In this document: one piece after another, positions 10,474-55,023 of the stretch
Layout: every line of letters begins with the position of its first letter
Position numbering within the stretch: the stretch's first letter is position 1
DNA from: Minutocellus sp. GHC0000111
Taxonomy: Eukaryota
Assembly: GCA_977018835.1 (NCBI GenBank)
Contig: OZ361261.1
Span: forward strand, 496,001 to 560,000
Reading direction: 5' to 3'
Length of the DNA: 64,000 nt
Position numbers and translations under genes: made by a program
Notes under the pieces: generated by a model
Databases searched by the model: none
What the model saw: only the letters and a program-made list of their open reading frames with translations
What the model was told of the DNA's origin: nothing

Positions 10474-11101
10474 GGCTTGTAGTGAAAGGTGTAGATTTTG
10501 AGAGGAATAGAACGTGGTACTAGAGACTAGTAGGTGGAATACAATCAGTCTGTTAATGTTTTCAGGAAAGTGAGGCCGAGGCCGAGTTTGCATTGCGCCT
10601 GTGTGTCTGCCGACGCGTTGATGAGTCATGCTTCCGGTAGGAGCGGTAACGAAAAAAGGAAAGTGTGTACTTTTTGTGTTCAGCAAAAGGTGGCGGGCGG
10701 GGGCTATTTTATGTGGATGGTGACAATTTCGGGAATGTTCCCGCGGTGACGAAATCACAATCCAGAACACTGTTCCAGAAAGCCGAGATTTCTTTTGTGT
10801 ACCTGGTATGCGCTCTGCTCAATGCTGCTACGTAGGAATTCCTACGCGGAACAGTGCAACATGTCAAAATGAAAAATAGGAATTCAAATGATGAAGCGAC
10901 GGGGAACAATAAGAAAAAAGGAATTCAAATGAAGCGACGGGGAACAAAATGACGGGGAAATTTCCCCGATTACGGACCCGATTACAGACCCGAGGAAAGC
11001 GCCCACAATAGCCCATTTGCATCGGACAAACCTATCGGACATCAAGCGACGTGGCGATTTTTGACATTACAACGTAGCTAGTAATTTTCCGTCATCATTG
11101 C

Positions 11102-11971
11102 ATGGCTATTATTAGAAAGATGAATACTAACGACGCCAACTCTTCTTCTTCATCGTCAGTCTTCGCCAACTTTCTTGTCCGGCCTTTGTCGTCATCGGGT
11201 CGCATCATCACTTCGAGCAGCAGGCCAAAACGAAGGTTGAGCCTGATAATTGCCCTGAAGAAGGATAATACTAATAACGAGCACGACGACCACGCAACGA
11301 CCACCAAGGAAAGCGATGTGCTGGTAGGCATAGTCGACAGCAAAGTAGACAACAAGCTCTCCCAAGACTTGTTCACAAGCGATGACGACAACCATGTACT
11401 AGTATCATGTCGTCGCTCTTCTATCAATGTTGCCCGAGAGCTCTGGGGAGACATGGGTGCAGACGACGGTGGTCTTTCCCCTGAGGCACTCGCAGCTTTG
11501 AGTGGCTCTCGGCGACAGAGCCAACAAAATCAAAGTTTCTCTTGGGCCATATCTTCAGCAACAAGAAATATCGGCGATGCCAATGCCATCGCTGCTCATC
11601 AAGGTGATATCAAAACACAAACGTTGCGTATGGTATCAGACGACGACGATGAAGAAGAAGAAGTTGCCACCAGGATCAACATCGATTCAACGAAAATGTC
11701 CACCGAATTCCACTTGCCATCACTTACTTCGAATAAGGCGATCCTACGAGCCAAGATTGACGAGATGTCCTGGAAATTGGTGCAGACCCGGCAACGGACA
11801 GGAGAAAGCCGCATTCTGGTTCATAATCACGTTCCGACGAAACCCTCCTTCCCCACAGATCACGACCAATCATGCTCTCCTGCCAAGAAGAGACGTCGCG
11901 ATGCCGAGCTCACCGATGCTCCCGAAGGACTATGGCGTCATTTCGCATCTGATTTCTTTTCCAAAGACTAA
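11102..11971 (+). CDS. Hypothetical low-complexity protein
   Basis: 289-aa ATG-initiated ORF with a basic C-terminal NLS-like PAKKRRR. Confidence 0.5.
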   Translation: MAIIRKMNTNDANSSSSSSVFANFLVRPLSSSGRIITSSSRPKRRLSLIIALKKDNTNNEHDDHATTTKESDVLVGIVDSKVDNKLSQDLFTSDDDNHVLVSCRRSSINVARELWGDMGADDGGLSPEALAALSGSRRQSQQNQSFSWAISSATRNIGDANAIAAHQGDIKTQTLRMVSDDDDEEEEVATRINIDSTKMSTEFHLPSLTSNKAILRAKIDEMSWKLVQTRQRTGESRILVHNHVPTKPSFPTDHDQSCSPAKKRRRDAELTDAPEGLWRHFASDFFSKD

Positions 11972-12312
11972 AAGTCACGTTCTCAAAGCAGGGCAAATTC
12001 CTACATTTGCGTGGTGGACGTTTACATGTACTTCGCACTCAGGCATTCATTATTGGTCTTTTTCTTATTGGCGCTGAGCAACTCATTTACTTACTTGTAC
12101 ATGATAACTGCATGCTAGATCTACATATTACAAAACAGCAAAAAATGCCGCTAATCTACATACAATACCCACGCGCTCCTGGGCTGTGCATCATTTGAGA
12201 GGCATCCTATAACGTTACTACATCTAATAAGATAATAATGGACCAAAGAAGCACAATACAGTATTATATTGAAGAAGTCAACCCATATATATGTGGACAC
12301 ACACTCGCGATC

Positions 12313-13347
12313 CTATTTTTTTTTACCAACACTTTTTCCACTTTCGGTTTCCTCAAATGGGGGTAGGTCAGAGTAGTCGTTTGCGCTTGTTCCTGGGGTG
12401 GAGCTCATAGCACTGCCGCCGCTTGTAGCCTGCCCTGACATGAAAGATGACACTTGTGGCATTAGTTGACTCGCCACGGTTGACGCAGCTCCGAGAGCTG
12501 CCGGCTGGGCCAGACTCACCAGAGCACCGCCAAGAGAAGTAGCAACCGACGTCGCCGCGACGGCCATTTCAGGACTGAGAATGCCGGGCCCGCCCGATCC
12601 CATGCTCGAGGCGGCGCCAGCCATTGTTTCCAACTCTCTCACTCTCTGTTCGAGGAAGATGGCAGTCTGCTCAAAGGCTGGGCTCTCGTCGGCAAGCATG
12701 TGCAACTCGGTAGTTGCATAGACACCTCCAATTGCGGCCTTCTCAATAACTCCCACGGAAGGCAGTCCGACGGCCGCAATGATGGTATCGACGAGGGTTG
12801 AAAGCTGCCCCGCCGTGGTGAGGGTGTTGTTCGGAGGCATGGCACCCAAAGCCATCCCATCCTGCCACCGACCGCTCCGTATGTAGGGACCGACCATTTC
12901 CAATCGGAACCAAATTGTTTGGTGTATCCGCTCCGGGATGGGCGTCCTCTGCTCCTGCCACGAGGGGATGAAGCGCTCCTTCAGTTCTTGTTCCAGCCTG
13001 GCGTTGCACTGATCCATGAAGAATGCCACGAGTTCCGACGGTCCTCCAGTGACAAGTCCTATGGTCGAGGGTGGGAGGTTGAGAGCAACAACGCCGGCTG
13101 CAATGGCATCGTCAGTCCATCCAAATTCGTGAACCTTCTCCAGCGAGGCGGACAGAATTTTCGTCCGCTGACTATCGAATGAACTGCCACCATCTGCACT
13201 GCTACTGTTAGTACGGGTAGCGCCAAATGACCGTGCACTGATCCTGAGCGGGGTTGACGCCTTTCGCGCAGCAGATCTAATGCATAGTCCATAACGGTAA
13301 AAGAAAAGGGGGTTGGTGAGCAAAGCATGGTGCGGCATAGACGCCAT
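12313..13347 (-). CDS. COQ9: Ubiquinone biosynthesis protein COQ9, mitochondrial
   Basis: ILSASLEKVHEFGWTDDAI, IWFRLEMVGPY, GGVYATTELHMLADESPAFEQTAIFLEQRV; Arg/Ser-rich presequence. Confidence 0.88.
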   Translation of the reverse strand: MASMPHHALLTNPLFFYRYGLCIRSAARKASTPLRISARSFGATRTNSSSADGGSSFDSQRTKILSASLEKVHEFGWTDDAIAAGVVALNLPPSTIGLVTGGPSELVAFFMDQCNARLEQELKERFIPSWQEQRTPIPERIHQTIWFRLEMVGPYIRSGRWQDGMALGAMPPNNTLTTAGQLSTLVDTIIAAVGLPSVGVIEKAAIGGVYATTELHMLADESPAFEQTAIFLEQRVRELETMAGAASSMGSGGPGILSPEMAVAATSVATSLGGALVSLAQPAALGAASTVASQLMPQVSSFMSGQATSGGSAMSSTPGTSANDYSDLPPFEETESGKSVGKKK

Positions 13348-14036
13348 GCCAAGTAATGGCGAGCATCAAATGCAAGACATGTCATTATTATGGCATGTTA
13401 GCGCGAAAAAAGACGGCTACCCTGGGGACAATATTGGAGGTAGACATCGATCGTCGGTTCGCGGAAATATAATTGATCTATCCCGTACTTGTTCCGTGGC
13501 TTCCATTGTTGAATTGTGAAAGAGACGGCTGTGTGACGGGTGTGGTCGCGCGCACTCGAGTTCGTTACGATGCGAGGCGTATTTGTTGCGGCCGCGAATA
13601 AACCGCAAGGCACAACCACAAGCATCGGACCACGCATATCGACGAAAAAGCTTACCTTTTCGATACTACTGCCGCCGCCGCTGTTGCGCGGCTGGAAGCC
13701 AGCGTGAGGGGTCGTATGGTTCTACATTGCAGGAGAGAGTAGCGGAGAGGTGGGCGATAAGAAGGTGAGTCTGTTGGTCCGCTGGTGACACTTGTGGGAT
13801 GATTCGATTCGATTCGGCAAGTAAATGAAGACAAGAAAAGAACCAGCCACCGATAGGGGGCTAATTCACAATGAAGCACCGAAACATTAGAACTACATGT
13901 GGACTTACCGCTGCATGGTGGCCAATGGACTCCTCGCTCGGTCGGGTGGTGGTTGTGGTCTTGTGGTCAGTGGTCCTGCGTCCTGCGATGACATGGTCCC
14001 GGCGAGCCGGCCGTGATTGCATGATGTGATCCCGCG

Positions 14037-15002
14037 ATGAGTCAGTGCAAGCAAATTTATTCAAAATTCAAGGAGGCAATGCTATTGGAGGAAAGCAAGA
14101 TGAACGGGTCGTCTGTATCGCAAATTGCCCCCCTCCTCTTGCTACTGCTGCTTTGCTGCGGTTCCTGCCCAGCATTGGCCTTTAGTCCTGGAACCATCCT
14201 CTCCCGGCTGACCGGAGGTGCCATCGACGCCGCCAATTCGAATGCCAAAAAGAACAAGAGGGAATGGCCAGAGAATGGTCGAGATGCCGAGTATCCGTGG
14301 TGCTTCACGGGCCGGCTTTGGTTTCGACCGGCGTTGGTTAGGGTAACATCCTCCGAGGATGCTTCAGATCCCAAACCTCCGCCATCCGTATCGATTGTCA
14401 ATCTCTTCGGTTGGACGATTGGAGGGACTGTGAGCCTCGAATACGACACGTCACCGGTGGGACCGTATCGAGAATACGTAACCATGGGTGCCGTGGTGAG
14501 CAAGCGGGGTGCACTGGGTCAGTGGGGAAGTCGACTCTACGTGTCAACGCAGACAGCTGAAGATGTATGCGTGGATGTATGGGGAGTACCAGCTCAGGTG
14601 GCAGACATTGACTTTGTAGAGGGAGATGCATCGTCTCTGCGAGTGGAAACTGCACCCAGCAAGCTAATTACGGGTGTGAAGCAAAGGATAGAAGTTGCGG
14701 GTTGGTCCAAGACGCGGGTGTTGACAGAGGAAGAACTGAGCGAAGCAAAGCCACAGGGTGGACTGCCAGTGCTATGGACGCCCACAATCAAGGCTCTTTG
14801 GGCACCACTGGTACCACTGCCGGGATCTGAGGACGATGGGGAGAATGCTCTGCCGCTCCACAAGTTGAGATTATCTGCGAATGCATTGCGACTTCGGTTT
14901 TGCCCACAGAGCCCATCGGATTCCTTGGGAATTCCCATACCAATTGGTTTGGTTGTTGATAATGTCTTGATTGAAATAGGGAGACAGGAAGGGGAGTTGT
15001 AA
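14037..15002 (+). CDS. Acetoacetate decarboxylase-like / NXD1-like plastid-targeted protein
   Basis: YPWCFTG, GGTVSLEYDTSPVGPYREY, RLYVS...VWGVPAQVADIDF; signal peptide plus ALAF leader. Start may be 14100. Confidence 0.7.
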   Translation: MSQCKQIYSKFKEAMLLEESKMNGSSVSQIAPLLLLLLLCCGSCPALAFSPGTILSRLTGGAIDAANSNAKKNKREWPENGRDAEYPWCFTGRLWFRPALVRVTSSEDASDPKPPPSVSIVNLFGWTIGGTVSLEYDTSPVGPYREYVTMGAVVSKRGALGQWGSRLYVSTQTAEDVCVDVWGVPAQVADIDFVEGDASSLRVETAPSKLITGVKQRIEVAGWSKTRVLTEEELSEAKPQGGLPVLWTPTIKALWAPLVPLPGSEDDGENALPLHKLRLSANALRLRFCPQSPSDSLGIPIPIGLVVDNVLIEIGRQEGEL

Positions 15003-15217
15003 CTTACTTGACATTTAGCATACGGCAGAAAGGTATGAAAGAAGCTAACTCTATTTACTAAAAATAGGTCTACCAATTGTCATATGTACAAAAGCATGCC
15101 ACTACGCAATATTCACGCGGATGTAGTGCCACAAAGCTTAACCAACTGTGGATATATAATATGTCGAGTCGATGTTCGAGTCCACTCGAGTCAAAAAGAA
15201 ATGTTTCGGGGATTCTC

Positions 15218-16688
15218 TCATTCGGCACGTAATGCCTTCTTCAATTGTTCGCGTTTTTCCGGTCCAAAGCCGATAAAGTCCAAATATCCTTCCACGTCGC
15301 CGTAACTTTCTCTTATCGTCACGAGAGTATCCCTCATAACTTGCGGCGGTGCTCCCAGGAATGTCTTGGGATCGAGATTCCTTTGAGAGAGAGCTCCAAC
15401 CATCGCCTTGTGATCGTTCATCTCGGCATAGACGTTTGCCGAGAGGCTGTAGTCCTCTACGATGGCCTCATCAGGCACGCCCAGCAGAGATAAGATAATG
15501 GCGGCAATCATCCCCGTTCGATCCTTTCCGGCCGTGCAGTAGAAGGCGATGGGATGCCGAGATTCATCCGCGCACAATTCCAACACATACTTGATGCCGG
15601 GAGCTCCAAATCGGAGAAGGAATTCGTTCAAGAGGGGCAGTCCACCGTCATTGATTTCCTCCAGAAATACGTCCTTGACGCGATCGCGCCCTCTTGGAAA
15701 CGATGGCGGTCGGGCTGCGGAGGAGGACGTTGGCAATGTCCCGCTTCCGCAGTTTGCTCAGCGTGCCACGGACGTATTTGAATTCGTTCATGAGGGATAC
15801 GAAGTGCCTCTCCTTGCGATTGAGGCAGTCGTCGTCGATGCCGCACAGATCGCACCGATCATCGAAGGCCTCGGCATCGTCGGGAATGTTGTCCTCGTAT
15901 CCCTCCTCCTCGAGCTCCTGCTGCTCCTCCATGTTGGAGACCTGAACGATAATTTCGGCAGTCGAATTCTCCACCCCTCGGAAGGGATGCGTCGCGGCGG
16001 CGATGCCACTCTTCAAGCCACTCACGGCCTCCTTCATCCGCGCTCCGCGATCCTTCTTCTTGTCGCCCTTCTTCTTGATGCGGGGCTCCCCGGGCGGCAG
16101 CTCCCGTACGAGCCCATCCTTCCCCCCACCCCGCTCGGTCCAAACGATGGAGCAAAAGTCGCCAAAGACCTCCTCCCTCTCCAACGTCGGGTCGTCCTTG
16201 AGCTCCGTCGGACTGCGCAGATCGACCAGCGTGTTGATCCCGATCTCGTCCATGAGAATGGCCAGATCGGCCTCGGTGGCGTCGGAAACCCGTCCCATCC
16301 GGTAGATGGTGTTGGGCTTGACGGGACTTCCGGCCACGCTGGCCAGATCGCGGGCGTTCTTCACCTTCTCGAAGGGGAGGTTGCGCTCCTCGCAGAGGGT
16401 TTTCGTCCGGGAGAAGAAGTCCTGCTCCTCCTGTGTGAATTCGACGTCCTCGATTTGCGATACATCAATGTCGTCATGAGCTGCCGCCGATGCGGACACG
16501 AGCGGTCTGGTACTGGTACTACTGGGAACATGTGTGAGAGGACGGCAGCTACTGCTGGTACCAGTACTACTCCTTGCTGAGCAGAGATTGCCAGCACCGG
16601 GATTGAATGCCGATACGAAAGTGCCGCTGCCGACCGCAGCCGCCGATGCGGCGGCCACGTATATTGTTGTTGAGATTCGCTTCATCAT
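15218..16688 (-). CDS. Protein-tyrosine phosphatase family (Y_phosphatase3-type), plastid-targeted; frameshift near 15687
   Basis: KNARDL, IYRMGRV, LVDLRSPTE, P-loop FYCTAGKDRTG, IVEDYSLS; SAF leader. The two ORFs join if a CG is restored in GCGCG[CG]AT, giving KRARDRVKD. Confidence 0.85.
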
Positions 16689-17133
16689 GAGAATCTTGCC
16701 CCTACTGGCCTGACGTGATGACGACGTCGTTGCGATATTTAGGGGTGAGATACCGCGGACTGAAAATGGAGCACAAGAGATGCGGTAAACCTGAAACCTC
16801 GAGACCTTGACGACAAATTTATTTGACACTGAACTTGTTGGAGATCTTCCCTTTTGAAGCAAGAGGAAGAGCAAGAGAGGCCACGGATACAGCACGTTAT
16901 GCATGGAACGGCAATCGACCGCACCAGGCCCAAATTTGGCACCACGTCGATCGCCGCGCGTCGCCGCTGGCGTGAAAGCTGTTGAAAATGACTCACTTGA
17001 CTCAACCATGAGCATGTACCGGTACGACATCACCCCAGGCAGCAGCAGCAGCATGGATGCGAGGATACGAAGATCTGAGGCTACGCGCTGCCCAGTCGGT
17101 TTGCACTGAGCCATATTAAGTACGCTTCAGACC

Positions 17134-17837
17134 ATGATCTCGATCAAATACTGGCCGATTCTTGCTAGATCATCAGGCTTGTTCCGAATGTGCGCCGAAT
17201 CCGGTGAGGTGGAATGGGAACACGTGACTACGTGACCGACGCATCAAAGTTCGGTGCCGCCCTGCTGGATTCCAACACGGATCCAGACGCCAAGAATCTT
17301 GCACCTCCCATCCTTTCCGATTCCGATACTGGCCTGATGCTGTCGCAGGCGGCGGCGTGTCATCAATATCTCGGAAATAAGCTCGGTTTCAACAAGGGCA
17401 TCAAGCATCCGGAGGTTGCGATCCAGTACATGAACGACTTATCGGATCTGCACTCGGACATGGCCGAGGCCGCCATCAAGGGCAAGGCAGCGAATGATGT
17501 CAAGGCTTTGAAGCAGTATCTGACAGGAGAGCGCTACAAGCGGCATTTGGGAGCCATTGACAGGTGCATAGTGGGACCGTACTACTTTGGAAATGAACCG
17601 ACCTACGTGGACTTTGCTGTTTGCAGCTATCTGGACATGTGTGAGGGCAAATGGCTGATGCCTGTGGAGGGCAAGAGTGGGGATACTATTGCCAGATACG
17701 CTCCAAAGCTGAGAGCCATCGCTCAAAAGATCCGTGCCCTACCATCTGCGTCAGATCCCAGGATTGCCAACACGAATCTCGTGCCACCTCCCTTTGTCAT
17801 CCCTCCTGAACGTGTCAAGACTTGGGATGATGATTAG
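17134..17837 (+). pseudogene. Glutathione S-transferase-like gene frameshifted by an 8-bp duplication at 17229-17236
   Basis: N-terminus MISIKYWPILARSSGLFRMCAE from ATG 17134; NLAPPIL...LSQAAACHQYLG; YYFGNEPTYVDF. Removing TACGTGAC restores EHVTDASKF. Confidence 0.8.
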
Positions 17838-18294
17838 AGTCTACATGTAGAGATCTCATTTATGGATGGATTCGATTCGTTTTTAAAGTTTTATGTAGGA
17901 ATACCAGTAGTACTGCCATACTTACATGTATAAAAGAAGATCTACCGTACACATCATACATGTACATGGAAGGCCGCTTTGAAGTCTGGCTCTGAAGTCT
18001 GGCTCTGCGTCGCCTCGACTCGATTCGACTCGACTCATTCGACTCCCAAGTGTAGCTCCATCCCTTCCTCCATGACGATCCTTGGCATTCCGGCGCCGCT
18101 ATTGGTCTCGCCGTACCCCCTGTACCGCCTCGCCATCGCTGTGTCTGCGCCCAGCAACCTCATCCCATTAACCCTCTGTTGTAGTTGGACGTATTGGTCA
18201 CAAAACGTTACGCGTATCTTACTCGAATCAGACTAATTTTGCACATCCCAGACCCACCAAAATTTTGTGCCAATAATACTAACTAATCACAACC

Positions 18295-19554
18295 ATGAGC
18301 ACGTTCACCGATCCGACGGCGGCGGCCCAGGAGCACTGCGAGGTGATGGCCAACCACGCCCCGGACCTGGCCGAGCAATACCAGTCCATAGCCATCCTCC
18401 TCCAAATGAAGCTGTACCATCAGCTCACCGTGGCGGTATTGGAGTTCGTCTCGTCGCCCGACAGGACCCTCCGGTCCACTCCCGACGGCACCTCGTCGTA
18501 CCTGGCCCTCTACGACAAGGTCGTCCTCAGCGTCGACAAGAGGCTCAATCAGCTCACGCTGGCCCGCATCGCCAGCGCGGTGGCCGACGCCACGGCCCCA
18601 ACCGACGGGGATTCGGCTCGGACGGTCTTGGAGAACCTGCTGGCCGACAAGCGGGAGCGGTTGGGACCGTCGGCGGCGCTCTACGTCGAGTCCAAGCTGG
18701 CGCTGCTGGGCCTCACCCTCCTCCAGCGCAGTGCGCCCAACGTCGACGGACCGAAGCATCTGGCCTTCACCAAGGAGCTGTTGCGGAAGAACGAGAAGAT
18801 TCTGACGGAGCAGGCCGTAGGGGGAGCCGGGGGGACGGGCGATGCCGCCGCATCCGACGGCGCCGTCGTCCACTCGGCCCACTACGAGTGCGCCATGGTG
18901 TACCGCAAGGCGGTGGGCCCGCCGGAGGCCTACTACCGCGAGGCCATCCAATATCTGCACTACACCCCCCTCGATGCCCTCCCGGCCGAGGAGCAGCTGG
19001 CCTTGGCCACCGATCTGAGCATGGCCGCCCTCACCGGGGACGGTGTCTACAACTTTGGTGAGGTGGTGCAGCATCCCATCCTCCAGTGTTTGGTCGGCAC
19101 TCCCAACGCCTGGCTCGTCGAGCTCATGGAGGCCAGCGCCGCCGGGGACGTCGCCGCCTTCAAGGCCGTGTCGACCAAGCACGCCGCCGAGGTTGCCGCC
19201 CAACCGGCCCTCACGGGACGGGCCCAGATGGTCCAGGAGAAGATCACCCTCCTGGCCATGGTCCACATGATCTTTGAGCGGCCGTCGTCCGAGCGGACCC
19301 TGCGCTTCGCCGACATTGCCCAGCGGATCGAGATGGCCGAGGATCAGGTCGAGCTGGTCATCATGCGCGCCCTCAGCCTTGGATTGATCCGCGGATCGAT
19401 GGACCAGGTCGACGGCACCGTCGAGGTTACCTGGGTGATGCCCCGCGTCCTCGACGCGGCCCAGCTGTCCGACCTCGCCGGACGGTTCGGTGAGTGGGCC
19501 GTCAAGGTCAGCCAGACCAAGGATTACATGTCCGAGCAGGCCTTTGCGGCATAG
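18295..19554 (+). CDS. RPN9: 26S proteasome regulatory subunit RPN9 / PSMD13
   Basis: KLYHQLT, GDGVYNFGEVVQHPIL, QEKITLLAM; PCI domain VELVIMRALSLGLIRGSMDQVDGTVEVTWVMPRVL. Confidence 0.95.
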   Translation: MSTFTDPTAAAQEHCEVMANHAPDLAEQYQSIAILLQMKLYHQLTVAVLEFVSSPDRTLRSTPDGTSSYLALYDKVVLSVDKRLNQLTLARIASAVADATAPTDGDSARTVLENLLADKRERLGPSAALYVESKLALLGLTLLQRSAPNVDGPKHLAFTKELLRKNEKILTEQAVGGAGGTGDAAASDGAVVHSAHYECAMVYRKAVGPPEAYYREAIQYLHYTPLDALPAEEQLALATDLSMAALTGDGVYNFGEVVQHPILQCLVGTPNAWLVELMEASAAGDVAAFKAVSTKHAAEVAAQPALTGRAQMVQEKITLLAMVHMIFERPSSERTLRFADIAQRIEMAEDQVELVIMRALSLGLIRGSMDQVDGTVEVTWVMPRVLDAAQLSDLAGRFGEWAVKVSQTKDYMSEQAFAA

Positions 19555-19753
19555 AAGATAGAGGGTTTTGAGATGATGAAAGGCATTGTTCTTTATCAGT
19601 TTAAAGAAGGCCCTCCTTGTGGGGGGGCTTCAAATTGATGGTATCTGCGTCTCTCTTGGATGATAGGCAAAATAACGATAATAAGGAATTATCTGAATGC
19701 GAGGGCACGGGCCCATTCTTCAACAGCTTCTAAGCTCTTCCTAAATATATGCC

Positions 19754-21527
19754 CTAGGATAACAGACGAATCAAGTGGCGGGCCGATTCGTTGCGCTGGA
19801 TGCGATCGTACTCCTCGTTGTTGATCTGCCGATTGGCGCTCGTCTTGGGGGTTGTTGGACGATGGTGAGCAGCAACATCAAACAATGATCTCCTTGCACC
19901 ATTCCTACTGCCATTGGCGCTGCCATCGTTGCTTGTCTCGAGCCTTGAGCCTCGAGCTTGCGGTGGTGACATGTGGTGATGGTAAGTGAAGTGTCCTCTT
20001 GGGTCATGGTAGGAGGAATACCGTGGCGCTAGACCATATGGGTGGCGATTCGCTGCAGAAGCTGCCGGTGCCCTACCTTTGGATCTATTTGAAGATGGAG
20101 ATGTGGCATCCTTCAATGATACCGGACTCTCTCCGGTAGCACCATCCCTCGCTACAGTCACCTCGGCGACGGGGGGCTTTGGGGAATGTGGTTTTGATCG
20201 AGGCTTCGTCGGCATCGGTGCTGGCAGAGCAGCCTTGGCCTTCCCGTCGTTGGTCTTGACGCGCTTTGATAGACGATCAATGATGACCTCATCGGCGACA
20301 TCTCGAAATTGCAACAATTGTTCGTCCGTCTGACAAGCAGAGCTGAACGTCAGGGCGATCTTGTCCTGCGGTGGGTCTCGTTTGGGAGAATCATCCTCAG
20401 CGGCTCCTTCTGCCGAGGTTGCTCCTGCCTGAATCCGTTCAAGCGCCTCGGTCTTGGCCTTGTGAATCTCGTACGGGAGAGTAGACCAGCGAGACCACTC
20501 CTCATCTTGCTGTTGGTTGTGAAGGGAGAAATGATTCATTCATAGGTAAGTGACTGCATTAGATCCATGGATACCTAAGTATTTGCATTGGGATTCGTCT
20601 TACCTCCTTCCGAGTCATTCTTCTCCACACAGCCATCTGGGACTTGCTACCCCTCCAGTGGATAGGTGGGACACGACCACCAAAGCCTTTCTTCACTGGG
20701 AAGTGCTTATTGATGGAGAGGCGGCAGAACCAATTCAGTGAAAGGGGAGATGAGGGTGACGTCGTTACCTGCTGCTCTGCGGGTGAGGATTTGGTGGCAT
20801 TGGGCGATGGTATGGTTGCTGCCCACGATGTAGCGGACGGAGGGGACTCCTCCTCCGGTACCACCGCCGCCGCCGCTGGGGAAAGCGCTGGCTTCTGCTG
20901 ATAGGGATGAGGGATTCCGACAGCGTAGCCGGACATTGCGTAGTACGAGGGGACTGTTAGTGTTTCTCCGTTTGAACCGATGGCATATACGTCCCCGTCA
21001 CCAGGAAATGGTCCACTTGTCAACCTTGTTCGGATGGGTGGAAAATATCTCCCACGACGTCTCTTGTTCGATGGGCGTGGACGCAGGGGATTTGTTGTCA
21101 TCGTGGAAGTAGTTGTGGACTCCGAGAAAGTGTCGCGATCGCTGCCGTGGAAGGTTAATTATGTCTATCGATGGAATTTTGTCGAGTGTGTGTGAGAGAG
21201 AGAGAGAATGGGAGAGGTGCGTCTGAATGCGAGCGAGGTTCACGTCTGGCAAAGGCCGACGAGCCAAATTCTTTCGACACTTACCGATGTTGAGGTCTCA
21301 TCGCTGTCGCCACTGCTGCTGTCGCCACTGCTGCTGTCCTCCTCATCTGAGATTTCCTCATCTGGGGTCAAACAGTCGTTGATACTTCCATCGATCCTAC
21401 GACTGCTAGCATCATCGCGGGTACCACGATGATCATTGGCAGCGGCATCTTCCAATTCCAACGACATTAACGCAAACATACGACCCTTCAAGTCAACACG
21501 GACCAGGCCGGTATAGAGCGAAGGCAT
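19754..21527 (-). CDS. Hypothetical protein; introns 21142-21284 and 20510-20603; probable frameshift near 21000
   Basis: Canonical GTAAG...CAG introns join ORFs 21240..21749 to 20998..21267 and 20559..21101 to 19754..20539 in frame (RRMTRKE|QDEEWSRW). One frame change is needed at KWTISW/DGDVYA. Confidence 0.55.
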
Positions 21528-43516: not shown

Positions 43517-44048
43517 CGCGAGGTGGTCTCTAGCTCTTTTAATTTACACATTTTAGACCCAATTGATGATTCAATGCAATCCACAAGCACAGTGCATGTA
43601 TAGTACCGGTACGGGTATCAGTACATCTCTAGCTAGGAACTTACCGGCAGAACAAAGCAAAGCAACGCTTGCTGCTTTTACTACGTAGGAGTATTGTTGT
43701 CCATACTGATAAAGTACAGAATGCCTACACGTAAGTGTACGAGCGAGCCGGCAATGCATTTCTGCCTCACAAAAATGTCGAGTTGGTTGATACATGATGG
43801 TCGAGGGAACATGCGCCGTCCATCGCGCTCCTCTTTGACCAAGTGATGACTAAAACTGGAGAGGTGCTCTCCTCGACCCATTCCACCAAGAAGAGGAAGA
43901 AATCGCATTGGGCGGAGACTGTATGCCTGTGCTGAGCGAGGAGGCCCACAATTTTCACTGTTGGCCGCAACTGTTCCTTCTTGCTACCGTTCGATCATTC
44001 AAAGATAAACCTGCTCCTGCCTCCATCCTGACTGACTGATCCTTCAAT

Positions 44049-45001
44049 ATGATACTTTTTCTTCCAAAGGAGTGGCGTTCCGGGCCGAGCCTTCGTCTTA
44101 TTTCTTTGCTTCTGATATCGACCAAATTACTGGCGGTCGTTGGTGCGGAAGGTGATGAAGTGACGACCGACTTTGTCCTTGCCCCCGATGAGGCCAGGCC
44201 CAACCAAAGTAATGTCGACATTACTCTTGATGAATTCCAAGGCCTGCTCTTCACTCACGTCAACAATGAAGTGAGCGAGGTAGATGACGAGACGGGTTCT
44301 ATCAACCGCGCCGCTGGGGCGGACAGCATCTGGTCAGGGCTCGTCCAACACGGATGGGACATGGCAGCATCAACAACTTCGAATGACGACGAAATTGTAG
44401 TCGACGGGGTCGGCGAGCGATCCAGCGCTCACACCGCGGCGGCAGAAGAAAGGCAATCTTCGTTCCTGGTTTGCGTCAGGGGCGGTGATATGTCTGGCTA
44501 CGAGCGCCTCCGGCCCGTCCTCGAAGGCTTTGGGGTGGACATATCGGCCACAATGGTGGTATCGAACTTGCCGGAGGAGACCTGCCGCTTCGTCACAACA
44601 GCTACCAGCAAGGCTCAGTCTCTGGCAGGTAAAGTAGTCGACGGCCTAGCATTTGCAATCATCCCCATTTTCGACATGATAAAAATCTCCCTCGGAACGA
44701 TCGACGAGGTATCCAACGAGAGATGGGCAATTCCTCCGTCTTTGAGCAACAACAACCGAGCTCTGGCCGTCCTTTCCAATGGCACTCGGCAAGACGATGA
44801 TAGCAATGACTGGGATCGTTCCATCATGGTCGGTCTTGCTCCTGGAGTCGGTGGCAAATCAGATCTCGAATGCGAAACTATTGCCGGTGCACTCATCGCC
44901 GATATCAAGGTGATGGCGGAATAAGGTCTTTTACGTCGTCGTCGCCAGTTGCAGGGTTCATCGTCTACTACCTCCTCCGTCAATCTACGTGGTGGCACCA
45001 A
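44049..45001 (+). pseudogene. 5'-only fragment of the subtilisin gene created by the tandem duplication
   Basis: Identical to 46722-47674 and cut at the duplication junction before the catalytic domain. Confidence 0.85.
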
Positions 45002-46189: not shown

Positions 46190-46721
46190 CGCGAGGTGGT
46201 CTCTAGCTCTTTTAATTTACACATTTTAGACCCAATTGATGATTCAATGCAATCCACAAGCACAGTGCATGTATAGTACCGGTACGGGTATCAGTACATC
46301 TCTAGCTAGGAACTTACCGGCAGAACAAAGCAAAGCAACGCTTGCTGCTTTTACTACGTAGGAGTATTGTTGTCCATACTGATAAAGTACAGAATGCCTA
46401 CACGTAAGTGTACGAGCGAGCCGGCAATGCATTTCTGCCTCACAAAAATGTCGAGTTGGTTGATACATGATGGTCGAGGGAACATGCGCCGTCCATCGCG
46501 CTCCTCTTTGACCAAGTGATGACTAAAACTGGAGAGGTGCTCTCCTCGACCCATTCCACCAAGAAGAGGAAGAAATCGCATTGGGCGGAGACTGTATGCC
46601 TGTGCTGAGCGAGGAGGCCCACAATTTTCACTGTTGGCCGCAACTGTTCCTTCTTGCTACCGTTCGATCATTCAAAGATAAACCTGCTCCTGCCTCCATC
46701 CTGACTGACTGATCCTTCAAT

Positions 46722-49700
46722 ATGATACTTTTTCTTCCAAAGGAGTGGCGTTCCGGGCCGAGCCTTCGTCTTATTTCTTTGCTTCTGATATCGACCAAAT
46801 TACTGGCGGTCGTTGGTGCGGAAGGTGATGAAGTGACGACCGACTTTGTCCTTGCCCCCGATGAGGCCAGGCCCAACCAAAGTAATGTCGACATTACTCT
46901 TGATGAATTCCAAGGCCTGCTCTTCACTCACGTCAACAATGAAGTGAGCGAGGTAGATGACGAGACGGGTTCTATCAACCGCGCCGCTGGGGCGGACAGC
47001 ATCTGGTCAGGGCTCGTCCAACACGGATGGGACATGGCAGCATCAACAACTTCGAATGACGACGAAATTGTAGTCGACGGGGTCGGCGAGCGATCCAGCG
47101 CTCACACCGCGGCGGCAGAAGAAAGGCAATCTTCGTTCCTGGTTTGCGTCAGGGGCGGTGATATGTCTGGCTACGAGCGCCTCCGGCCCGTCCTCGAAGG
47201 CTTTGGGGTGGACATATCGGCCACAATGGTGGTATCGAACTTGCCGGAGGAGACCTGCCGCTTCGTCACAACAGCTACCAGCAAGGCTCAGTCTCTGGCA
47301 GGTAAAGTAGTCGACGGCCTAGCATTTGCAATCATCCCCATTTTCGACATGATAAAAATCTCCCTCGGAACGATCGACGAGGTATCCAACGAGAGATGGG
47401 CAATTCCTCCGTCTTTGAGCAACAACAACCGAGCTCTGGCCGTCCTTTCCAATGGCACTCGGCAAGACGATGATAGCAATGACTGGGATCGTTCCATCAT
47501 GGTCGGTCTTGCTCCTGGAGTCGGTGGCAAATCAGATCTCGAATGCGAAACTATTGCCGGTGCACTCATCGCCGATATCAAGGTGATGGCGGAATAAGGT
47601 CTTTTACGTCGTCGTCGCCAGTTGCAGGGTTCATCGTCTACTACCTCCTCCGTCAATCTACGTGGTGGCACCAAGCAAACCCCAACTTCAGGTTTGTCCG
47701 TGAGCGATGCTTTCTCGGCAACTTCAGCCCGATTTGACAACCCAAATCGCCGCCATCTCCTTGATTCTACCTCTAATGTTTGGTCTCGCGCACTCGAGCG
47801 CGGCCTTGAGTCTCACCACATGTGTGCCTCTATGTTCGACGACATCGACATTCGCCTGAGACATGGTAACAAGGGTTTTGAATACATCCTCAATCCCATG
47901 AATGCAATCACTGCTGACGACGAATCCTCCGCGTCCAATACCGACTGCGTCATCTCTTTCATCGCTGCCCTTTCAACACATCCTTATGTCGTCACTGTTG
48001 AATCCAACGGGGAAGTTACGTCTGACAGCAACACCAACGCTCAATGGATTACTCAAACGAGCGAGGAGGGCCATACTCCTTTCTTTGATGCTGGTATCAC
48101 CGGAGAGGGAGAAATTGTTTCCGTCTCTGATAGCGGAGTCGATCTGCATAGCTGATGGTTCAAAGACGAGAGAGGCAACGGCGATATTTTCAATGGAGTG
48201 AGTATAAATGCAGCCAGAATGTTCTGTTGTTATTTTTCTCTCAACCTCTCCTTGATTTTTCTCACTATTAATCCTCCCTGATCACTTTCTTTGTCGTCGC
48301 TCTTTCGCACTCCTTCCCTCGCCATGATTTTGCTTTCAGAACTGGGATTTCTCTCGACGCAAGGTTGTCCGCTACGACAACACCTACCGCGATGACATCG
48401 ACCAGATTGGTGGTCATGGCTCTCACGTCGCTGGAACAATGATGGGTAACCGACCTGACGGTAAGGCAGATAAAGGCCAGGGTATTGCCCCCGATGCCAA
48501 GCTTCATGTTTTTGATATGAAACCTGGAAACGGAGGTATGAGCGATCCCGGTGCCAAGCGATTATTTGCTTCTATTTACAACAATGGTAATGGTGCCAAG
48601 GTCCACAATGGTAGCTGGGGACGTTCCGGTCGTCCCTACTCTAGCCATTGTCAAGATTGGGATGGCTCTCTATCTGGAGAATACGAAGATCTTCTCTACG
48701 TTGTATCGGCCGGTAACACTGGAGGTGGAGCGAGAACAGTCAAGAACCCTGCCGACTGTAAAAACACCTTTACGGTTGGATGCAGTCAGAGCATCGAAGA
48801 AGATTTGGACAGCAGAAACGACATGGGATTGGGGTACAGGACGTCTTGGTCTTCTCGTGGTCCCACTTACGATGGTCGAACGAAGCCTGACATCGTAGCT
48901 CCTGGTTATAACATTCATTCCGCCAATGGCAGCGTCGGGAAGGACACCTGTAGTACTCTTGATATGGCGGGGACAAGCATGTCCGCGCCTGTGGTGGCAG
49001 GTAATGCTGCTCTGGTGAGGCAGTACTTTCGTGACGGATTTTACCCCTGCGGAGTCAAGGGATGTGGAGAGAGTATCACGCCGAGCGGATCGCTCGTAAA
49101 GGCAGTTTTGGTGAATGGCGCACAGAATCTCAAGGGCGTCCAGTTCGTTCCCGGTGGCTCTGTGCGAACCATTTCGGAATACGACAATACTCAGAATATG
49201 GGCGAAGTGAGATTGAATAGATCCATGCCGCTCCGGGGAGAGAACGATATCAACACATACATTGTTAACAACAAGGAGATTGCCGTGGGAGAGACCGACT
49301 TTGTCGACATTGAAATCAACACCAACGGTCGGTCAGTCAACGAAATCAGTGTTGCTTTGGTGTGGTACGACCCACCGACGGCAGCATATTGTTCCAACTG
49401 CATTCGGAATAATCTTGATCTGAAGGTAGAAAAGACTAGCGGCGAATCGGTTCTGAGTACCTTCTATCCCAATGGACTGTCGAGCCCAGATGTTAAAAAC
49501 ACCGTCGAGAGGATTCGTTTGAGCGACGTCTCTCATGGTGATACATATCGCGTTTCGGTGAGGGCGGCCAATTTCGACGATGCCAGTCAAAAATATTCAC
49601 TTGCCCTCACTGGAAGCTTTGAGCTTGCCGCCGATGTTCCAATCGAAACATCTGATCCAACGGCTTCGCCCACAGCCTTGCCGACGTCGAGTCCGAGCAA

Positions 49701-50412
49701 GTCACCGACGGCCTCACCGTCGTCGAGTCCGAGCAAGCTACCGACGCCTCTGCCTACAATTACATATTCATCAAATCCCTCGGCAAGACCAAGCAAATCA
49801 CCCACCCCGAAGCCATCGTCCTTCCCAACCCTGAGCCCCATTACCAGTACCGCAAGTCCTACGTCTTCACCCGAAAGCCAGGCACCCACTTCAAGGCTTA
49901 CTCAAGTTCCAACAACACAGTTGACGCAGTCACCAACAAATACTGGTGTCGAGGCAAGAACCGAGAGTGCAGAGACAGGAGCCCCTACTTCTAGCCCATC
50001 TGTGGCGGCAACCCTGAGTCCAGTGACAACTGCTCCGGCGACCAGTCCACCTACAAAGGTCCCGTCTTCATCTCCAGTGTCCAAGAGCCCGACTCTAAGC
50101 CCAAGCGATTCCCCGGCCACCAATCCACCGACGAAGAACCCATCTTCCTCTCCAGCAACCAACCCACCGACAAGAAGTCCCTCATCATCTCCAGTATCTC
50201 GTAGCCCAACTTCCAGCCCAACCATAACACCGGTTCAGTTGCCAGCCAATGGCGGTATAGAGACGAGGACCGAAGGTGGGGAGGCAGCAGGAGATAATGA
50301 CGAAGACGCAGAGTACCAGCAGTGGTGTCTACTAAATGAAAAGGAATGCAAGAAAGCAGAAAAGGAGAAACAGAAGCAAAAGGAGAAGGCCGAGAAGGAG
50401 GTGAGTGATTGA
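46722..50412 (+). pseudogene. Secreted subtilisin-like S8 protease (Kp43/Tag-like) with Pro/Thr/Ser-rich tail; intron 48198-48339; in-frame stops at 47595-47597 (TAA) and 48153-48155 (TGA)
   Basis: Signal peptide; catalytic D in VSVSDSGVD, H in HGSHVAGT, S in AGTSMSAP; SSRGPTYDGRTKPDIVAPG; SPT-type repeats at about 49650-50230. One frame throughout apart from the two stops. Confidence 0.9.
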
Positions 50413-50977
50413 ATCTCCCTTCTTACTAGATCTATGTCATAGCTAGACTCAACATTGCCGCTATCATGCTGCACGAGGAACGTACATTGTACTCAAATTT
50501 CATTTTATTGACTCATCGATGCTTATTTGTTTATCATTTCAATTCCATCAAATTTGCTTCTCCCCGCAATGATGCAAAACAAAAGGCTGCAAAGGCACAA
50601 AAGAGCGGCGGTAGCGGTCGGTAGTTTCTTCTTCATACGTACCGGTAGGCTAGAGTTCCCCTAGCACCGTAGGCCTCGTCTTATCAGAAGTGACAATGGA
50701 TGGACCTGACCTCTTCACAAGGAAGGAAAAAAAATACATGTAAAGAGATGTAATTTTAGAGAAGTGATTGCCGCCACAGTGTACAGATGCGCTGATGGGC
50801 ATGAGTTATCCACCATTTTGCCTTAGCAACAGTCTCATACCGGTAACGGTAGATCTAGATCTGCATCTATTTTGCTTGACTTGTTACCTGCAGGAGGTGG
50901 TGTTGGTTCCTGAGACTGACTCACTCGACTCGATGACTCGACTCGGCCTCATAACCCATTGCTATTTGCCGCTGGCC

Positions 50978-53554
50978 CACAGCACCATCTGCCAGCCGGA
51001 TGACTCGCATACTTTTGGTCGCACTTTCGGTGGCCGGCCGGCGCGCCCAACGCGAGCCACCATGGCGGCAAAAATTCAAATTGCCGCCGCTACGTGCAGA
51101 ACGAAGGCGATATCTCGCGCTGGTGTGGGAGAATTACGGCACGAGACCAACCAGGTGCTCCCGACATCCTGGTGATATTCCCGTTGGTCTCGATCCATGT
51201 GTAATTCTCCATGAGCAAAAAAAATAACGGCCGCAATCCCGCGGTCAACACCGCAGACAGAGTTGCGGTGCAGGACGCCCTGGCTGAACCACTCGTCCGT
51301 CTTCGCAGAAAGGAACTTCATTACTACAATTTCATCGGCAACAACAACGACTCCTTGATGAATGTGTTGGGATGCAGTCCCATCATGCACGGCGCCGTCA
51401 TGTGCACTGCGGGCATCTCTTGGGTTTGAAGAAGAAGAAACACGAAGAAGACTGCGATGTGTTTTTTGTGAGGACAGACAACCAGAATGGATGGGATGAA
51501 ATGGTATCAAGACACTGCCTTGCCGACGACGTTCAGCGAACCCCATGCAAAAAGAGCATGTTTGTTCGCCTCGGTTCTGCATCAATCCTCGTGCAGCCGA
51601 CGCTCTCCATGATGATGATGGATGGATGGCTTTCGACATGGTCTCACGGTCGAGCAACAATTTCGCCTCGAAATGCCGCCGCCGCGGCTCAATTTGACGA
51701 AGGCATGCAATGCACTCCTCAAGCCGGTCGCACAACACATGTCGGTGGGACATGCGGCGATGGACTGCGAAATCAACAGGCAGATGTTGCTCGAGGCCCA
51801 GAAGCTCCCTGCTGGTGGGCACAGTGGCCAGGACGATGGGTGGGACAATGACGACGATGTTGGGACGGTGGGCACCCTGACCACGACGGAGGCCGGCGAG
51901 ATCAGTGAGGACGATGACGACGAAGACGAGGACCATGTGCCCTGTTGTGAGGACGAAGCTGATGTTGCAAGAGAGGACGCTACACATGAAGCATGCATGC
52001 AGCAGTGCTTTGAGAAGAATCGTCAGAAGCACGGTGATGGCGAGCCAGAGATGGGAGCTGTCGATGATGCCGAGGATGACGATGCCCCTCACTTCCATTT
52101 CCTGAAAAAGGCCGGCATTGAGGCGGCCGACTCAGGTAAAATAAGGGCAGTGCTGGCAGAATGCTGGAGAGCTTTGTCTCTGTTAATGTTTCTGATGGCA
52201 ACAACAAGAAGAAACCAAGGACAATGGAGTTCATCCACCACAACACCTCCACCAAAGGAACTCTCCTAGAGCACAATCGCGAGGAAGATGGCATGACGGA
52301 TGACGACATCAAAGAGCTCTGCAAAGCTTGCTCTAATTTGCTCCACACTCTTGACGCAATGTGTTCCAGGTTTCTGAAATGGTGCATGAAATGGGATGAT
52401 GAGGCAAAGAAGGCTGTGAGAGAGCTTGAAGCATTGATTGCAAGTGCCCTCAAGCAAGCACGGGCAATCGGTGTTAGCACAACGCCCAAGTGGCACTTAC
52501 TCGAAGATCACATCTTGGACCAACACATTTGGCTAGTGAAGAATGGATGGGGCGGCATCTGTTGGCTCGACGAATCGTTTGTAGAGCGAGCCCACCAAGA
52601 GGGCGTTAAGGAAGATCGTCGGACTCAGGGCGTCAAGGGATGTGAAGCCCAACAGACGGCGCAGTTCAAGGCTGAGGAGAGGGCATCCAATCCAAAGGTC
52701 GAGGAGAGGCGGGAGCGAAACTCTCGGGTGGCAAGAACAAGGAAAAGGACAAGGACCGAAGCTGTTAAAGCAGAAACTGATGACAAGCGCCAACAAATGA
52801 TCATGATGGCCACCGATGGAGATGAGGATGTAGAGATGGGAGCAGGGCATGTGTAAAATTAGAAAATGAAATTACACTGCTGCTGCACAATGACAAATGA
52901 ATTGCATGGTCCAACTTTTACAAACAGCATCGCGATTGAGCAAACAAACACATCACGTCCTTCTTAACTCACCCATTTATCTCCCAGACCAAAAAGTCCC
53001 TTTGTCGGGTTGATTGTTGCATAAACTTATCCCAACACTATCTGTCTCTCCTCGGGCGCAAAAATGTTGTCGGAGTTCCGGGAGGTCGAGTGGGGATGCG
53101 ATCGGTCGGGATCAGCGAGAGTCGGTCATGCGGGGGGTGCGGCGCAATCCCGGCAGTTTATCATCAACAACAACGTGGGAAAGTACCAGAGGGTCTGGGG
53201 CATCACAACGGGAGCACGACGAGCACAAAGACGGAGCAATGGCACCACCCCGGAGAAACGAACGGCCGACAGATGGAGGAAAAGTAGGCCGATGGTTCGT
53301 GGCGTTGATACGCAGCGGAGGCCAATCTGAGGATACAGTAAGCTTCAACTATATCCAAACATGATAATGAATGCGTATTTGGTACGAAAATATAGTTATA
53401 CGCCGGCGCAACGCCGACGGACCACCATGGTGTTGGACGGTCAAAGAATGGGTGACGAACGAGATTGGGTTTTGGTGGGTTTCTTCGTGAAGTGTTCGCC
53501 TTCTGCCAAAAACCGCTTCATCCGACCGGCGAAACAAGACGAGATGGGGCTGTG
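50978..53554 (+). mobile_element. Internally deleted Chapaev/Transib(RAG1)-lineage DNA transposon
   Basis: Termini CACAGCACCATCT and AGATGGGGCTGTG (12/13 inverted match); GGCC direct repeat at 50974-50977 and 53555-53558; internal transposase relic. Confidence 0.88.
51211..52856 (+). pseudogene. Degenerate DDE transposase relic (frameshifted; only the C-terminal His-His/catalytic Glu segment recognisable)
   Basis: TPKWHLLEDH...GGICWLDESFVERAHQEG (about 52482-52604) parallels RAG1 YFHKTLAH...GSIGAWASEGNESGN and the corresponding Transib/Chapaev motif. Confidence 0.75.
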
Positions 53555-53607
53555 GGCCAGCCGCCGTTCGTGTCGTTGGGCGCTTGCTTGATGTTGCTGT
53601 GACCGAT

Positions 53608-55023
53608 ATGCCAGCCGCCATGGTGCCCAGGAGTTCCACCGCCGTTCTTCCCGGATACGAGGCACAGATATCAGACGGTGGTGTCGAACACTCAGAGGCG
53701 AAACTTAGTACAGCTGCCGCTGCTCTTCGAGAACAGCTTTGTGAATGCTCGGCGGGAAAGTCTGTCGACATCTGTGAGAGACCCTGTCGTCGAGACGACG
53801 AAACTCTGTCGTATCGATGCCGCGTAACATTTCAATTGCTCTGTAGTGGTGGTGACGGAGTTTGGGAGTACGCAATGCGGACCAACAAAAAAGCTGTCTC
53901 GATCAATTGTTCACGCTTTCCAATTGCTACGCTTCGAATTCAAGTGGCAATGGATGAGCTCATGCATTTGTTCAACGATGATACAAACGAATGCGCCACC
54001 CTCCTCTCGGCTCGACCGGCCTCGATTTCCTTTGCATCTTCTTGGGTGGATGACAAAGATCTCACAGTCACAATCAATTACACCGAGCAATTGCCAGCAC
54101 TATCAACTGATGAGGAATCTAAATGGTTGAGTGAAGCCGATGAAGTTCGAAGACAATGTAGGCTGACAAGTTTGACAGGCCGTTCTCGAAAACGCAAGCT
54201 AGTTTCGTATGACCAAAACAGCAACGACGGGGGCAATATTGTGATTAGGGACTCAATCACTATTTGTTACGATGTTGCACATGGAAACAAAATCGATGTT
54301 CTTGTTGGAGATTGCCAACCTCCTCACGAAGGGGATATATGCATCAAATATGAAAAGCCGGAGGATGCATTTGCTCATCCAAATGGCAATGCAATGAAAA
54401 TGGCATTAAGCTGGATCCTCACTCGCATGACCCTGATATCAAGTGAACTCCGCGACAACGACATTGGTCTCCTTGAGATGTACTGTGGTTGTGGCGCGCA
54501 CACGGTGCCCATAGCAAAAGTTTGTTCGAACATTTCATTTATCTCTTGCGTCGAACTGGATGAAAGGCTAATTATGGCTTGTCAGAAAAACTTGCGACTG
54601 AACCGAATTGATGCCGAATTCAAAAGACCAGGCAAAGGGTTGGAAAAAGAAAGGAAATCATCCGAGCCCGTTGTTCAACTATTCCGTGGTGATGCAGGGG
54701 AGTGGGCAAAGAAGTCAAGGCACAAACTGACCAGCAGGAAGAAAATTGAAGAAGTTTGCAACAGTAACACCACGTGGTATGGGCGAGATTATACCATTCT
54801 GTTGGTGGACCCTCCAAGAGCTGGTCTTTCATCAGATGTATGCCGGATGGCAATTGAGGGCAGCTTCCAGCACATAATTTACATTTCTTGCGGAAAGGAG
54901 GCATTGCTGAGGGATCTTACAATATTGAGTAGTGTGTTTGAGATTGCTGACTGCACGCTGATTGATTTATTTCCCCGAACAGATGCAGTGGAAAGTCTCG
55001 TGCATCTACGAAGACGCAAATAG
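53608..55023 (+). CDS. trmA: tRNA (uracil-5-)-methyltransferase, TrmA-like
   Basis: SYRCRVTF, AFAHPN, LLEMYCGCGAHT, LVDPPRAGL, IIYISCG, DLFPRTDAVE. Confidence 0.9.
   Translation: MPAAMVPRSSTAVLPGYEAQISDGGVEHSEAKLSTAAAALREQLCECSAGKSVDICERPCRRDDETLSYRCRVTFQLLCSGGDGVWEYAMRTNKKAVSINCSRFPIATLRIQVAMDELMHLFNDDTNECATLLSARPASISFASSWVDDKDLTVTINYTEQLPALSTDEESKWLSEADEVRRQCRLTSLTGRSRKRKLVSYDQNSNDGGNIVIRDSITICYDVAHGNKIDVLVGDCQPPHEGDICIKYEKPEDAFAHPNGNAMKMALSWILTRMTLISSELRDNDIGLLEMYCGCGAHTVPIAKVCSNISFISCVELDERLIMACQKNLRLNRIDAEFKRPGKGLEKERKSSEPVVQLFRGDAGEWAKKSRHKLTSRKKIEEVCNSNTTWYGRDYTILLVDPPRAGLSSDVCRMAIEGSFQHIIYISCGKEALLRDLTILSSVFEIADCTLIDLFPRTDAVESLVHLRRRK

Follow-up and report, generated by a model that had tools for sequence, protein, structure and literature searches.

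Transposons of the CMCT clade (EnSpm/Mirage/Chapaev/Transib/RAG1) are characterized by 5'-CA..TG-3' termini and a target site duplication (TSD) of 2-5 bp (PMC12730594). Ends resembling the 12/23 recombination signal sequences (RSSs) of V(D)J recombination have been published for Transib5, Transib2_AG and TransibN1-N3_AG, with the same polarity as described below (PMC1131882), and asymmetric terminal inverted repeats (TIRs) occur in all Subgroup I Transibs; AanRAGL, a RAG-like (RAGL) element of the ochrophyte Aureococcus, has asymmetric ends with 4/13 spacers and a 5-bp TSD (PMC9435367). PflRAGL-A shows a 10-bp asymmetry (PMC10629977), and ProtoRAG prefers the 5'/3' end pair (PMC8289069). Chapaev elements are marked by TSDs of 3-4 bp, CAC..GTG termini and C(2)C, LH and H(4)H motifs (PMC4079192), and by a Chapa zinc finger, the pattern of which is given in PMC4411706 (supplement 5). 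In the present analysis, a stretch of 64,000 nucleotides from Minutocellus sp. GHC0000111 (contig OZ361261.1, positions 496,001 to 560,000; hereafter the window, the positions of which are used throughout) was found to contain a transposon copy of 2,577 bp (50978-53554). With a probability of about 0.7, this copy belongs to a transposon family with a predicted RAG1/Transib fold that likely pairs a short left end with a long right end, the 11-bp difference between the two being conserved in the lineage; the identity of the element as described here is held with very high confidence.

The left end of the element consists of CACAGCA (50978-50984), 12 bp and CGGATGA (50997-51003), and the right end, on the minus strand, of CACAGCC (53554-53548), 23 bp and CGGATGA (53524-53518). 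Both ends had been given in a preliminary description of the locus and were recovered on re-reading the sequence, together with their alignment with a single 11-bp gap and the GGCC duplications at the borders, from which a palindromic target, GCTGGCCAGC, was rebuilt (Table 1). The same description had overlooked the earlier publication of 12/23-like ends for several Transib families (PMC1131882), and had reported a TTTTGG motif common to both ends. This motif proved private to the window copy, since nearly all the depth at 53508 and 53513 reads letters other than those of the window in four of four sequencing runs. In the window copy taken alone, the inner block was only moderately significant: its gapped score was equalled by 103 of 2,000 shuffles, with p=0.02 over any offset and p=0.002 at offset 11. 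The firmness of the offset comes from the relatives. A private 11-bp indel in a decayed copy, with a second block arising by chance, would fit the p of ~0.02-0.05 for the inner block alone; nevertheless, this explanation is extremely improbable, as the same offset, polarity and position recur in at least four other lineages, and no 11-bp indel at either end was found among the best-supported variant rows listed for the four runs.

The element is a real, mobile, multi-copy DNA transposon with a polymorphic insertion. Part of the window stretch is contained in 20 of the 23 listed sequencing runs, four of which (X1, X2, X4 and X6) were examined in detail. The empty site with a single GGCC, which the preliminary description had called for, was seen in a contig of run X2 that joins 50973 to 53555, skipping 2,581 nucleotides (2,577 + 4), with four letters that fit either side; this allele indicates a TSD of 4 bp. 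Contigs joining 50961 to 53558 were present in X1, X2 and X4, and neither joint (50973/53555 or 50961/53558) was seen in X6. In X1 and X4, contigs cross the insertion site at full flank depth, indicating that the insertion is polymorphic. The depth rose from ~19 in the flanks to 9,000-20,000 inside the element in X1, and from ~270-320 to 60,000-120,000 in X4, with the step exactly at the element limits; these values sum overlapping contigs and indicate many copies, not a copy number. One contig from an RNA run departs from the element precisely at 50978 into a different flank, although contigs of the element in RNA runs do not demonstrate expression. Another contig of X2 joins 53554 to 50978 with four letters between them, corresponding to a head-to-tail tandem with a common 4-bp TSD or to an excised circle. 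The variation among copies comprises mainly transitions, several of them as TG/CA pairs at adjacent positions (51820-51821, 52225-52226, 52360-52361, 52641-52642, 52891-52892 and 53243-53244), a pattern consistent with CpG methylation and deamination of the family.

To follow the offset beyond the window, a protein-pattern scan of metagenome contigs was used, in which 92 of 531 candidates were confirmed, giving 79 loci, and end pairs were chosen by their first 12 bases alone. At 13 of the 79 loci, two ends starting with CAC could be paired with 10 or more of the 12 terminal bases matching. Among the eight pairs with at least 11/12 matches, the best offset was 11 in seven (L005, L009, L013, L017, L035, L043 and L054) and 21 in one (L042); each of the seven was significant at 11 (p<=0.006), a value fixed beforehand by the preliminary description. 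A second pass added L011, also with offset 11. In a pooled profile with one element from each of eight lineages, offset 11 scored 75 and the next offset 48, and the result was reached in 0 of 2,000 shuffles; this profile includes three lineages with other offsets, and its range, positions 16-32, was picked after the blocks had been seen. In all significant pairs, the short form lay 5' and the long form 3'. Single ends at other loci mostly resembled known ends of the same side, with the exceptions of L041, L019 and L075, which also or better resemble the opposite side of another lineage.

The transposases of these elements are highly diverged. The intact protein P0164, near-identical to the window copy, shares 22-26% identity with the relatives for which both ends were paired (20-26% across the lineage), whereas L009, L013 and L017 are mutually 46-49% identical and L043 and L054 81% identical. 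In a FastTree tree of 24 chosen rows, with long branches and no outgroup, lineages with offset 11 fell on both sides of the midpoint root; the tree was used solely to show the spread of these elements. The offset given in the preliminary description is thus conserved, with fixed polarity, across the lineage and is not due to chance. That exactly 11 bp are kept between transposases of 20-26% identity with different boxes argues for selection, and lineage-wide selection on the offset is considered highly likely.

The inner box overlaps the position of the RSS nonamer. In the register of the RSS, positions 20-28 of one end and 31-39 of the other agree at 6-9 of nine bases in the eight elements shown, and a distal box in the 12/23 register, 11 bp further out on one end, was found in the window element and eight related loci. 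The nonamer itself is absent, as the preliminary description had stated: the window ends match it at 3/9 and 2/9 bases, and all 24 ends compared at 1-4/9. The conservation expected for CGGATGA did not hold, since the relatives carry a different box containing (C)GTA(G). In 11 relatives, GT(A/T) boxes lie at left positions 26/27 (10/11) and at right positions 37/38 (10/11) and 18 (7/11), with further boxes near 36-39 and 44-49. What is conserved among these ends is thus the spacing, not the box sequence.

Transposons with multi-site ends are known. In the main rival explanation, each end is an array of transposase boxes at a phase of ~10 bp, different subsets are used on each side, and the offset is a by-product without RAG-like tilting or a 12/23 rule. 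The GT(A/T) positions in the 11 relatives, the extra boxes and the two-turn offset of 21 in L042 agree with such arrays. Against them, the flanking identity marks one block at exactly 11 and not 10 in most lineages; the window family has no GTA boxes and yet shows the same 11 bp at the same block position; and the block overlaps the nonamer register and shares the polarity of the published Transibs (PMC1131882). Phased arrays without a pairing rule are therefore regarded as unlikely.

The enzyme was studied in its intact form. Full-length and near-identical proteins, P0164 (1,097 aa) and P0161, were found, and the intact element is probably ~4.3 kb in length. P0164 contains D516, D615, C632xxC635, LH704, H978-x4-H983 and E1004/E1008. 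A homologue search of 1.84 billion representatives gave 177 matches, mostly 22-44% identical among the 150 listed; two of the listed proteins, P0091 and P0095, were false positives by their Pfam content and were excluded from all alignments. Full-length relatives of 1,030-1,200 aa share the motifs DHG, GD, WCxxC, LH, YHGG, KxHxxxxH and ExxxExxHQ, and the DDE, C2C and H4H motifs are present in the intact relatives. Pfam gave no match for the open reading frames (ORFs) of the window element or for P0001-P0007 and no relevant family in 24 longer homologues; among 97 alignment members, the best relevant match was DUF1280 (E=0.0017) in one. Sequence searches against the PDB did not recover RAG1 or Transib.

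Prediction from the single sequence was unusable (predicted local distance difference test, pLDDT, 37), whereas AlphaFold2 with the 97-row alignment gave a model with pLDDT 77, exceeding 90 across most of the core. With this model, Foldseek recovered RAG1 (E=9e-12), BbRAG1L (6.5e-9) and HzTransib (2e-5), the next unrelated match being at 0.03. In VIA, the model matched RAG1 with Z 22.1 (root-mean-square deviation, rmsd, 4.4 A; 477 aligned residues), HzTransib with Z 20.7 (4.0 A; 432), BbRAG1L with Z 20.0 (4.6 A; 481) and the P element with Z 11.1 (7.1 A; 373), at 8-13% identity; the first three Z values do not separate affinity to RAG1, HzTransib and BbRAG1L. A structure search over 48,161 chains gave RAG1 with Z 21.3 (rmsd 5.5 A, 510 aligned), the match reaching RAG1 residue 423 in the region of the nonamer-binding domain (NBD). 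The transposase is accordingly predicted to have the RAG1/Transib fold, and the fold part of the earlier assignment to a RAG1/Transib-lineage enzyme was borne out by the predicted model. Between LH and YHGG, a long coiled-coil hairpin of ~120 residues (733-850 of P0164) is present family-wide; it interrupts the zinc-binding region of the RAG1-like core, and its place presumably corresponds, by motif order and not residue by residue, to the RAG1 alpha11-alpha12 RAG2-binding region, as named by Tao et al. In the Atlas, cnidarian hypothetical clusters ranked at the top (0.96; one with DUF1280 in 12% of its members) and RAG1 followed at 0.94, which suggests that animal relatives probably exist. 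Nothing in the viral structure library matched at E<=0.001, and no relatives were found in the viral contigs or prokaryote genomes searched. Four matches in an end-pattern scan of viral contigs had no similarity to the element and were taken as chance.

Several observations weigh against a conserved two-part end read by a RAG1-like enzyme. The score of the second pass favours, by one point, another pair for L043 with offset -8; the first pair was retained, as its ends resemble those of L054 and it encloses the second gene described below. L014, a 10/12 pair with a strong block, has offset 8, and its left end carries a GAT duplication, which may account for the difference (8+3=11). Four of the five 10/12 pairs lack a significant inner block, L030 has an offset of ~10 in a weak pair picked by eye, and L042 (L042:247-4388) is offset by 21, that is, two turns. 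The several phased GTA boxes at each end in relatives mean that the ends may be multi-site arrays and not two-part signals. TSDs are mostly absent in the relatives: at the eight clear pairs, they measure 4 bp in L017 and 3 bp in L035 and L043, and none was found in the other five, as would be expected if the assemblies join flanks of different copies. Model residues 336-400 align with RAG1 404-460 in 4wwx_E, 6cil_A, 6oem_A and 6oen_C only, in a region of pLDDT ~57-70, and a GRPR/K-type motif occurred in 0 of the 30 proteins scanned. Within the window family, the conservation of the offset is drawn only from the variant rows listed for the four runs. The right end of L041 is the same as that of L042.

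The window element itself is a non-autonomous, internally deleted copy of the multi-copy transposon. The 5' part of its gene differs by small indels from other copies, and the 3' part retains H978, H983, E1004, E1008 and H1011. The C-terminal motifs HLLEDH...G...ESFVERAH were found in the window ORF, so that the statement that it keeps HxxxxH...G...ExxH stood; overlooked was that two of the three catalytic residues are gone from this copy. The deletion removed D516, D615, C632/C635, H704 and the coiled coil, and the copy therefore cannot be active alone. An identical junction was found in six collection proteins (P0001, P0002, P0004, P0005, P0009 and P0010), three of which head clusters of 57, 23 and 30 members, indicating that the deleted form was amplified in trans. 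P0006 and P0007 represent a sister family of 65-70% identity and are also internal deletion derivatives, with other breakpoints.

Table 1. Coordinates of the features of the window element and of the second gene in related loci
Feature	Coordinates	Strand	Basis
Left TSD, GGCC	50974..50977	+	sequence; single GGCC in the empty allele of run X2
Left TIR, 13 bp, CAC start, 12/13 match to right end	50978..50990	+	
Left inner box, positions 14-26 (CGGATGA at 20-26), short '12-type' end	50991..51003	+	
5' part of transposase gene (N-terminal domain, acidic linker; to residue 328 of P0164), frameshifted	51211..52268	+	tblastn of P0164; frames
Internal deletion junction, P0164 residues 329-900 (~1.7 kb) gone	52263..52268	+	tblastn of P0164
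3' part of transposase gene (residues 901-1097), 95% identical to P0164	52263..52856	+	
3' region, holding the small convergent gene at this place in relatives	52857..53517	.	window matches neither family
Right inner box, positions 25-37 (CGGATGA at 31-37), long '23-type' end	53518..53530	-	
Additional 11 bp, right end only	53531..53541	-	
Right TIR, 13 bp, CAC start	53542..53554	-	sequence; joints at 53554/53555
Right TSD, GGCC	53555..53558	+	
Second gene	L009:4265-4825	-	
Second gene	L011:3739-4236	-	
Second gene	L013:3422-3961	-	
Second gene	L014:3844-4503	-	
Second gene	L017:4158-4739	-	
Second gene	L042:3641-4306	-	
Second gene	L043:3904-4401	-	
Second gene	L054:4115-4648	-	

With CAC..GTG termini, a 4-bp TSD known from the empty allele, and the motifs C632xxC635 and H978-x4-H983 of P0164 conserved in relatives, the element is a member of the CMCT clade. 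It shares with Transib a single transposase gene with a RAG1-core fold, predicted here, CAC termini and two-part ends that are short at 5' and long at 3', but it differs in its TSD (4 bp versus 5 bp), in the lack of an A-rich nonamer-like box, and in a transposase of ~1,030-1,200 aa with a novel N-terminus, a 120-residue coiled coil and ~10% identity to HzTransib. RAG1 was the best structural match, and the ends resemble the V(D)J RSS in their CAC start, the 11-bp difference and an inner box at the nonamer position (20-28 and 31-39), whereas the identity to RAG1 is 11-13%, nonamer and RAG2 are lacking, conserved bases stand beside the heptamer (TR2-like), and the element is mobile and multi-copy. 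RAGL elements (AanRAGL, likewise from an ochrophyte, PflRAGL-A and ProtoRAG with 27/31) also have two-part asymmetric TIRs, and in two of the subclades described here a second, convergent gene occupies the place of RAG2L; however, that gene is of 145-220 aa without kelch, the TSD is 4 bp and not 5 bp, and the offset is 11 instead of 9, 10 or 4. The related elements measure 3.5-4.5 kb with one ORF of 1,030-1,200 aa, and a RAG2-like kelch gene was not found inside their TIRs.

It is also conceivable that the element belongs to a standard Chapaev or Subgroup I Transib family, which may already be listed in Repbase, and that its asymmetric ends are the known Transib feature, inherited without special function. 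The 4-bp TSD, the CAC..GTG termini and the C(2)C, LH and H(4)H motifs are hallmarks of Chapaev and Chapaev3, where 3-4-bp TSDs occur (PMC4079192); all Subgroup I Transibs have asymmetric TIRs (PMC9435367); and the cnidarian clusters outrank RAG1 in the Atlas. On the other hand, no Chapa zinc finger or RING was seen at the N-terminus, where the full-length proteins among the 30 scanned contain no CxxC in their first 400 residues (a motif test, not a profile); the TSD is not the 5 bp of Transib; a keyword search of the supplement text of Tao et al. for the motifs YHGG and GGDHG and for diatom names found none of them; and exactly 11 bp are kept across transposases of 20-26% identity with different boxes. 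A known family of this kind is thus a doubtful explanation. In the passages of PMC4079192 and PMC4411706 examined, asymmetric ends differing by one turn were not reported for Chapaev. The literature searched contained no published description of the lineage, although one may exist in Repbase, in figures, in bioRxiv supplements or in most of the subscription journals, to which the search did not extend. The element departs from Transib and RAGL in its TSD and in its lack of a nonamer and RAG2L, and from Chapaev in its lack of a Chapa domain. It probably works like RAG/Transib but is formally assigned to neither.

For a RAG1/Transib-fold enzyme pairing a short with a long end, the following mechanism is proposed. 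A transposase dimer supplied by an intact ~4.3 kb copy elsewhere would grip each end by its CAC-terminal 12-14 bp in the two active sites, while an N-terminal DNA-binding module (model residues ~336-400, overlapping the RAG1 NBD in some alignments) would bind the inner box. If this module were tilted as in RAG, one box would have to lie one helical turn further out, and the tilt would favour left-right synapsis and thereby the excision of whole elements. Cleavage may pass through a nick and a hairpin, insertion may use a stagger of 4 nt, and RAG2 would not be needed. The preference of ProtoRAG for the 5'/3' pair (PMC8289069) provides a precedent for left-right pairing, and we rate the chance of a measurable left-right preference here as slightly better than even.

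Many relatives carry a second gene. In 8 of the 11 elements with both ends, the stretch from the transposase stop to the right end contains an ORF of 145-220 aa in the opposite orientation, a layout that mirrors RAG1L/RAG2L. Family A comprises the L009 clade and L010, family B the L014/L020/L054 clade, and L042 carries a third type; families A and B were unrelated by profile. The dN/dS (ratio of nonsynonymous to synonymous substitution rates) was 0.15-0.36 in the 10 computable of 12 pairs with >45% identity, indicating that a small convergent gene is under purifying selection in two subclades. The second gene gave no Pfam or PDB match, no convincing Atlas match and no kelch; a HEAT repeat identity was rejected because the Atlas matches were weak and inconsistent. 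At 145-220 aa it is too small for the RAG2 propeller, and it is not RAG2. It was not found in L005, L030 or L035, and since L005 and L035 have offset 11 without it, the offset is independent of the second gene. The 3' region of the window element matched neither family, and its PLLRLCARR stretch, first taken as a homologue of the second gene, was rejected. Tandem diverged transposase genes were observed on one contig in two cases (L018:2-3127 and 4133-7360; L006:2793-4964 and 6640-7314).

A more far-reaching proposal is that, in a deep-branching algal superfamily with the RAG1 fold, one subunit imposes a genuine 12/23 rule of one turn without RAG2 or nonamer, that this geometry predates the Transib/RAG split, and that an accessory gene was gained twice independently in the RAG2 position, repeating the RAG-making step. 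We put it forward tentatively and consider it somewhat unlikely.

The window is densely packed with genes and eukaryotic. The element is preceded by a subtilase gene (48328-50412) and followed by a tRNA (uracil-5-) methyltransferase ORF (53608-55023), the first ATG of which (53608) is 50 bp beyond the right TSD. The insertion, which is missing from this site in other runs, could affect the expression of this ORF. A local tandem duplication upstream of the subtilase gene consists of two ORFs of 294 aa (44040-44921 and 46713-47594), 2,673 bp apart and with the same first 50 residues. The ferrochelatase of the window has a signal peptide ending in SVSA-FAF, which fits a complex-plastid targeting signal of the ochrophyte type; a diatom is the probable host.

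The origin of the 12/23 rule is debated, and the present lineage bears on the question. In one view, the sensing of asymmetry requires RAG2 and the RSSs came from a Transib (PMC8355894), whereas in the alternative view the RSSs were derived from RAGL-A ends (PMC10629977). The idea of asymmetric ends is already known, but the geometry alone is strictly kept here, in a very distant lineage that lacks RAG2 and has intact members, and this makes the origin of the 12/23 rule directly testable. An 11-bp offset kept at the RSS register, with a box free to change, at 20-26% identity within the lineage and 10-13% to RAG1, and in the absence of RAG2, points to the enzyme itself as the source of a geometric constraint. 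Intact single-ORF elements in which both ends are present are numerous (for example L009, L013, L017 and L035). The capture of RAG2 would have a natural counterpart in the small convergent genes. In its host, the family is a high-copy, polymorphic mutagen.

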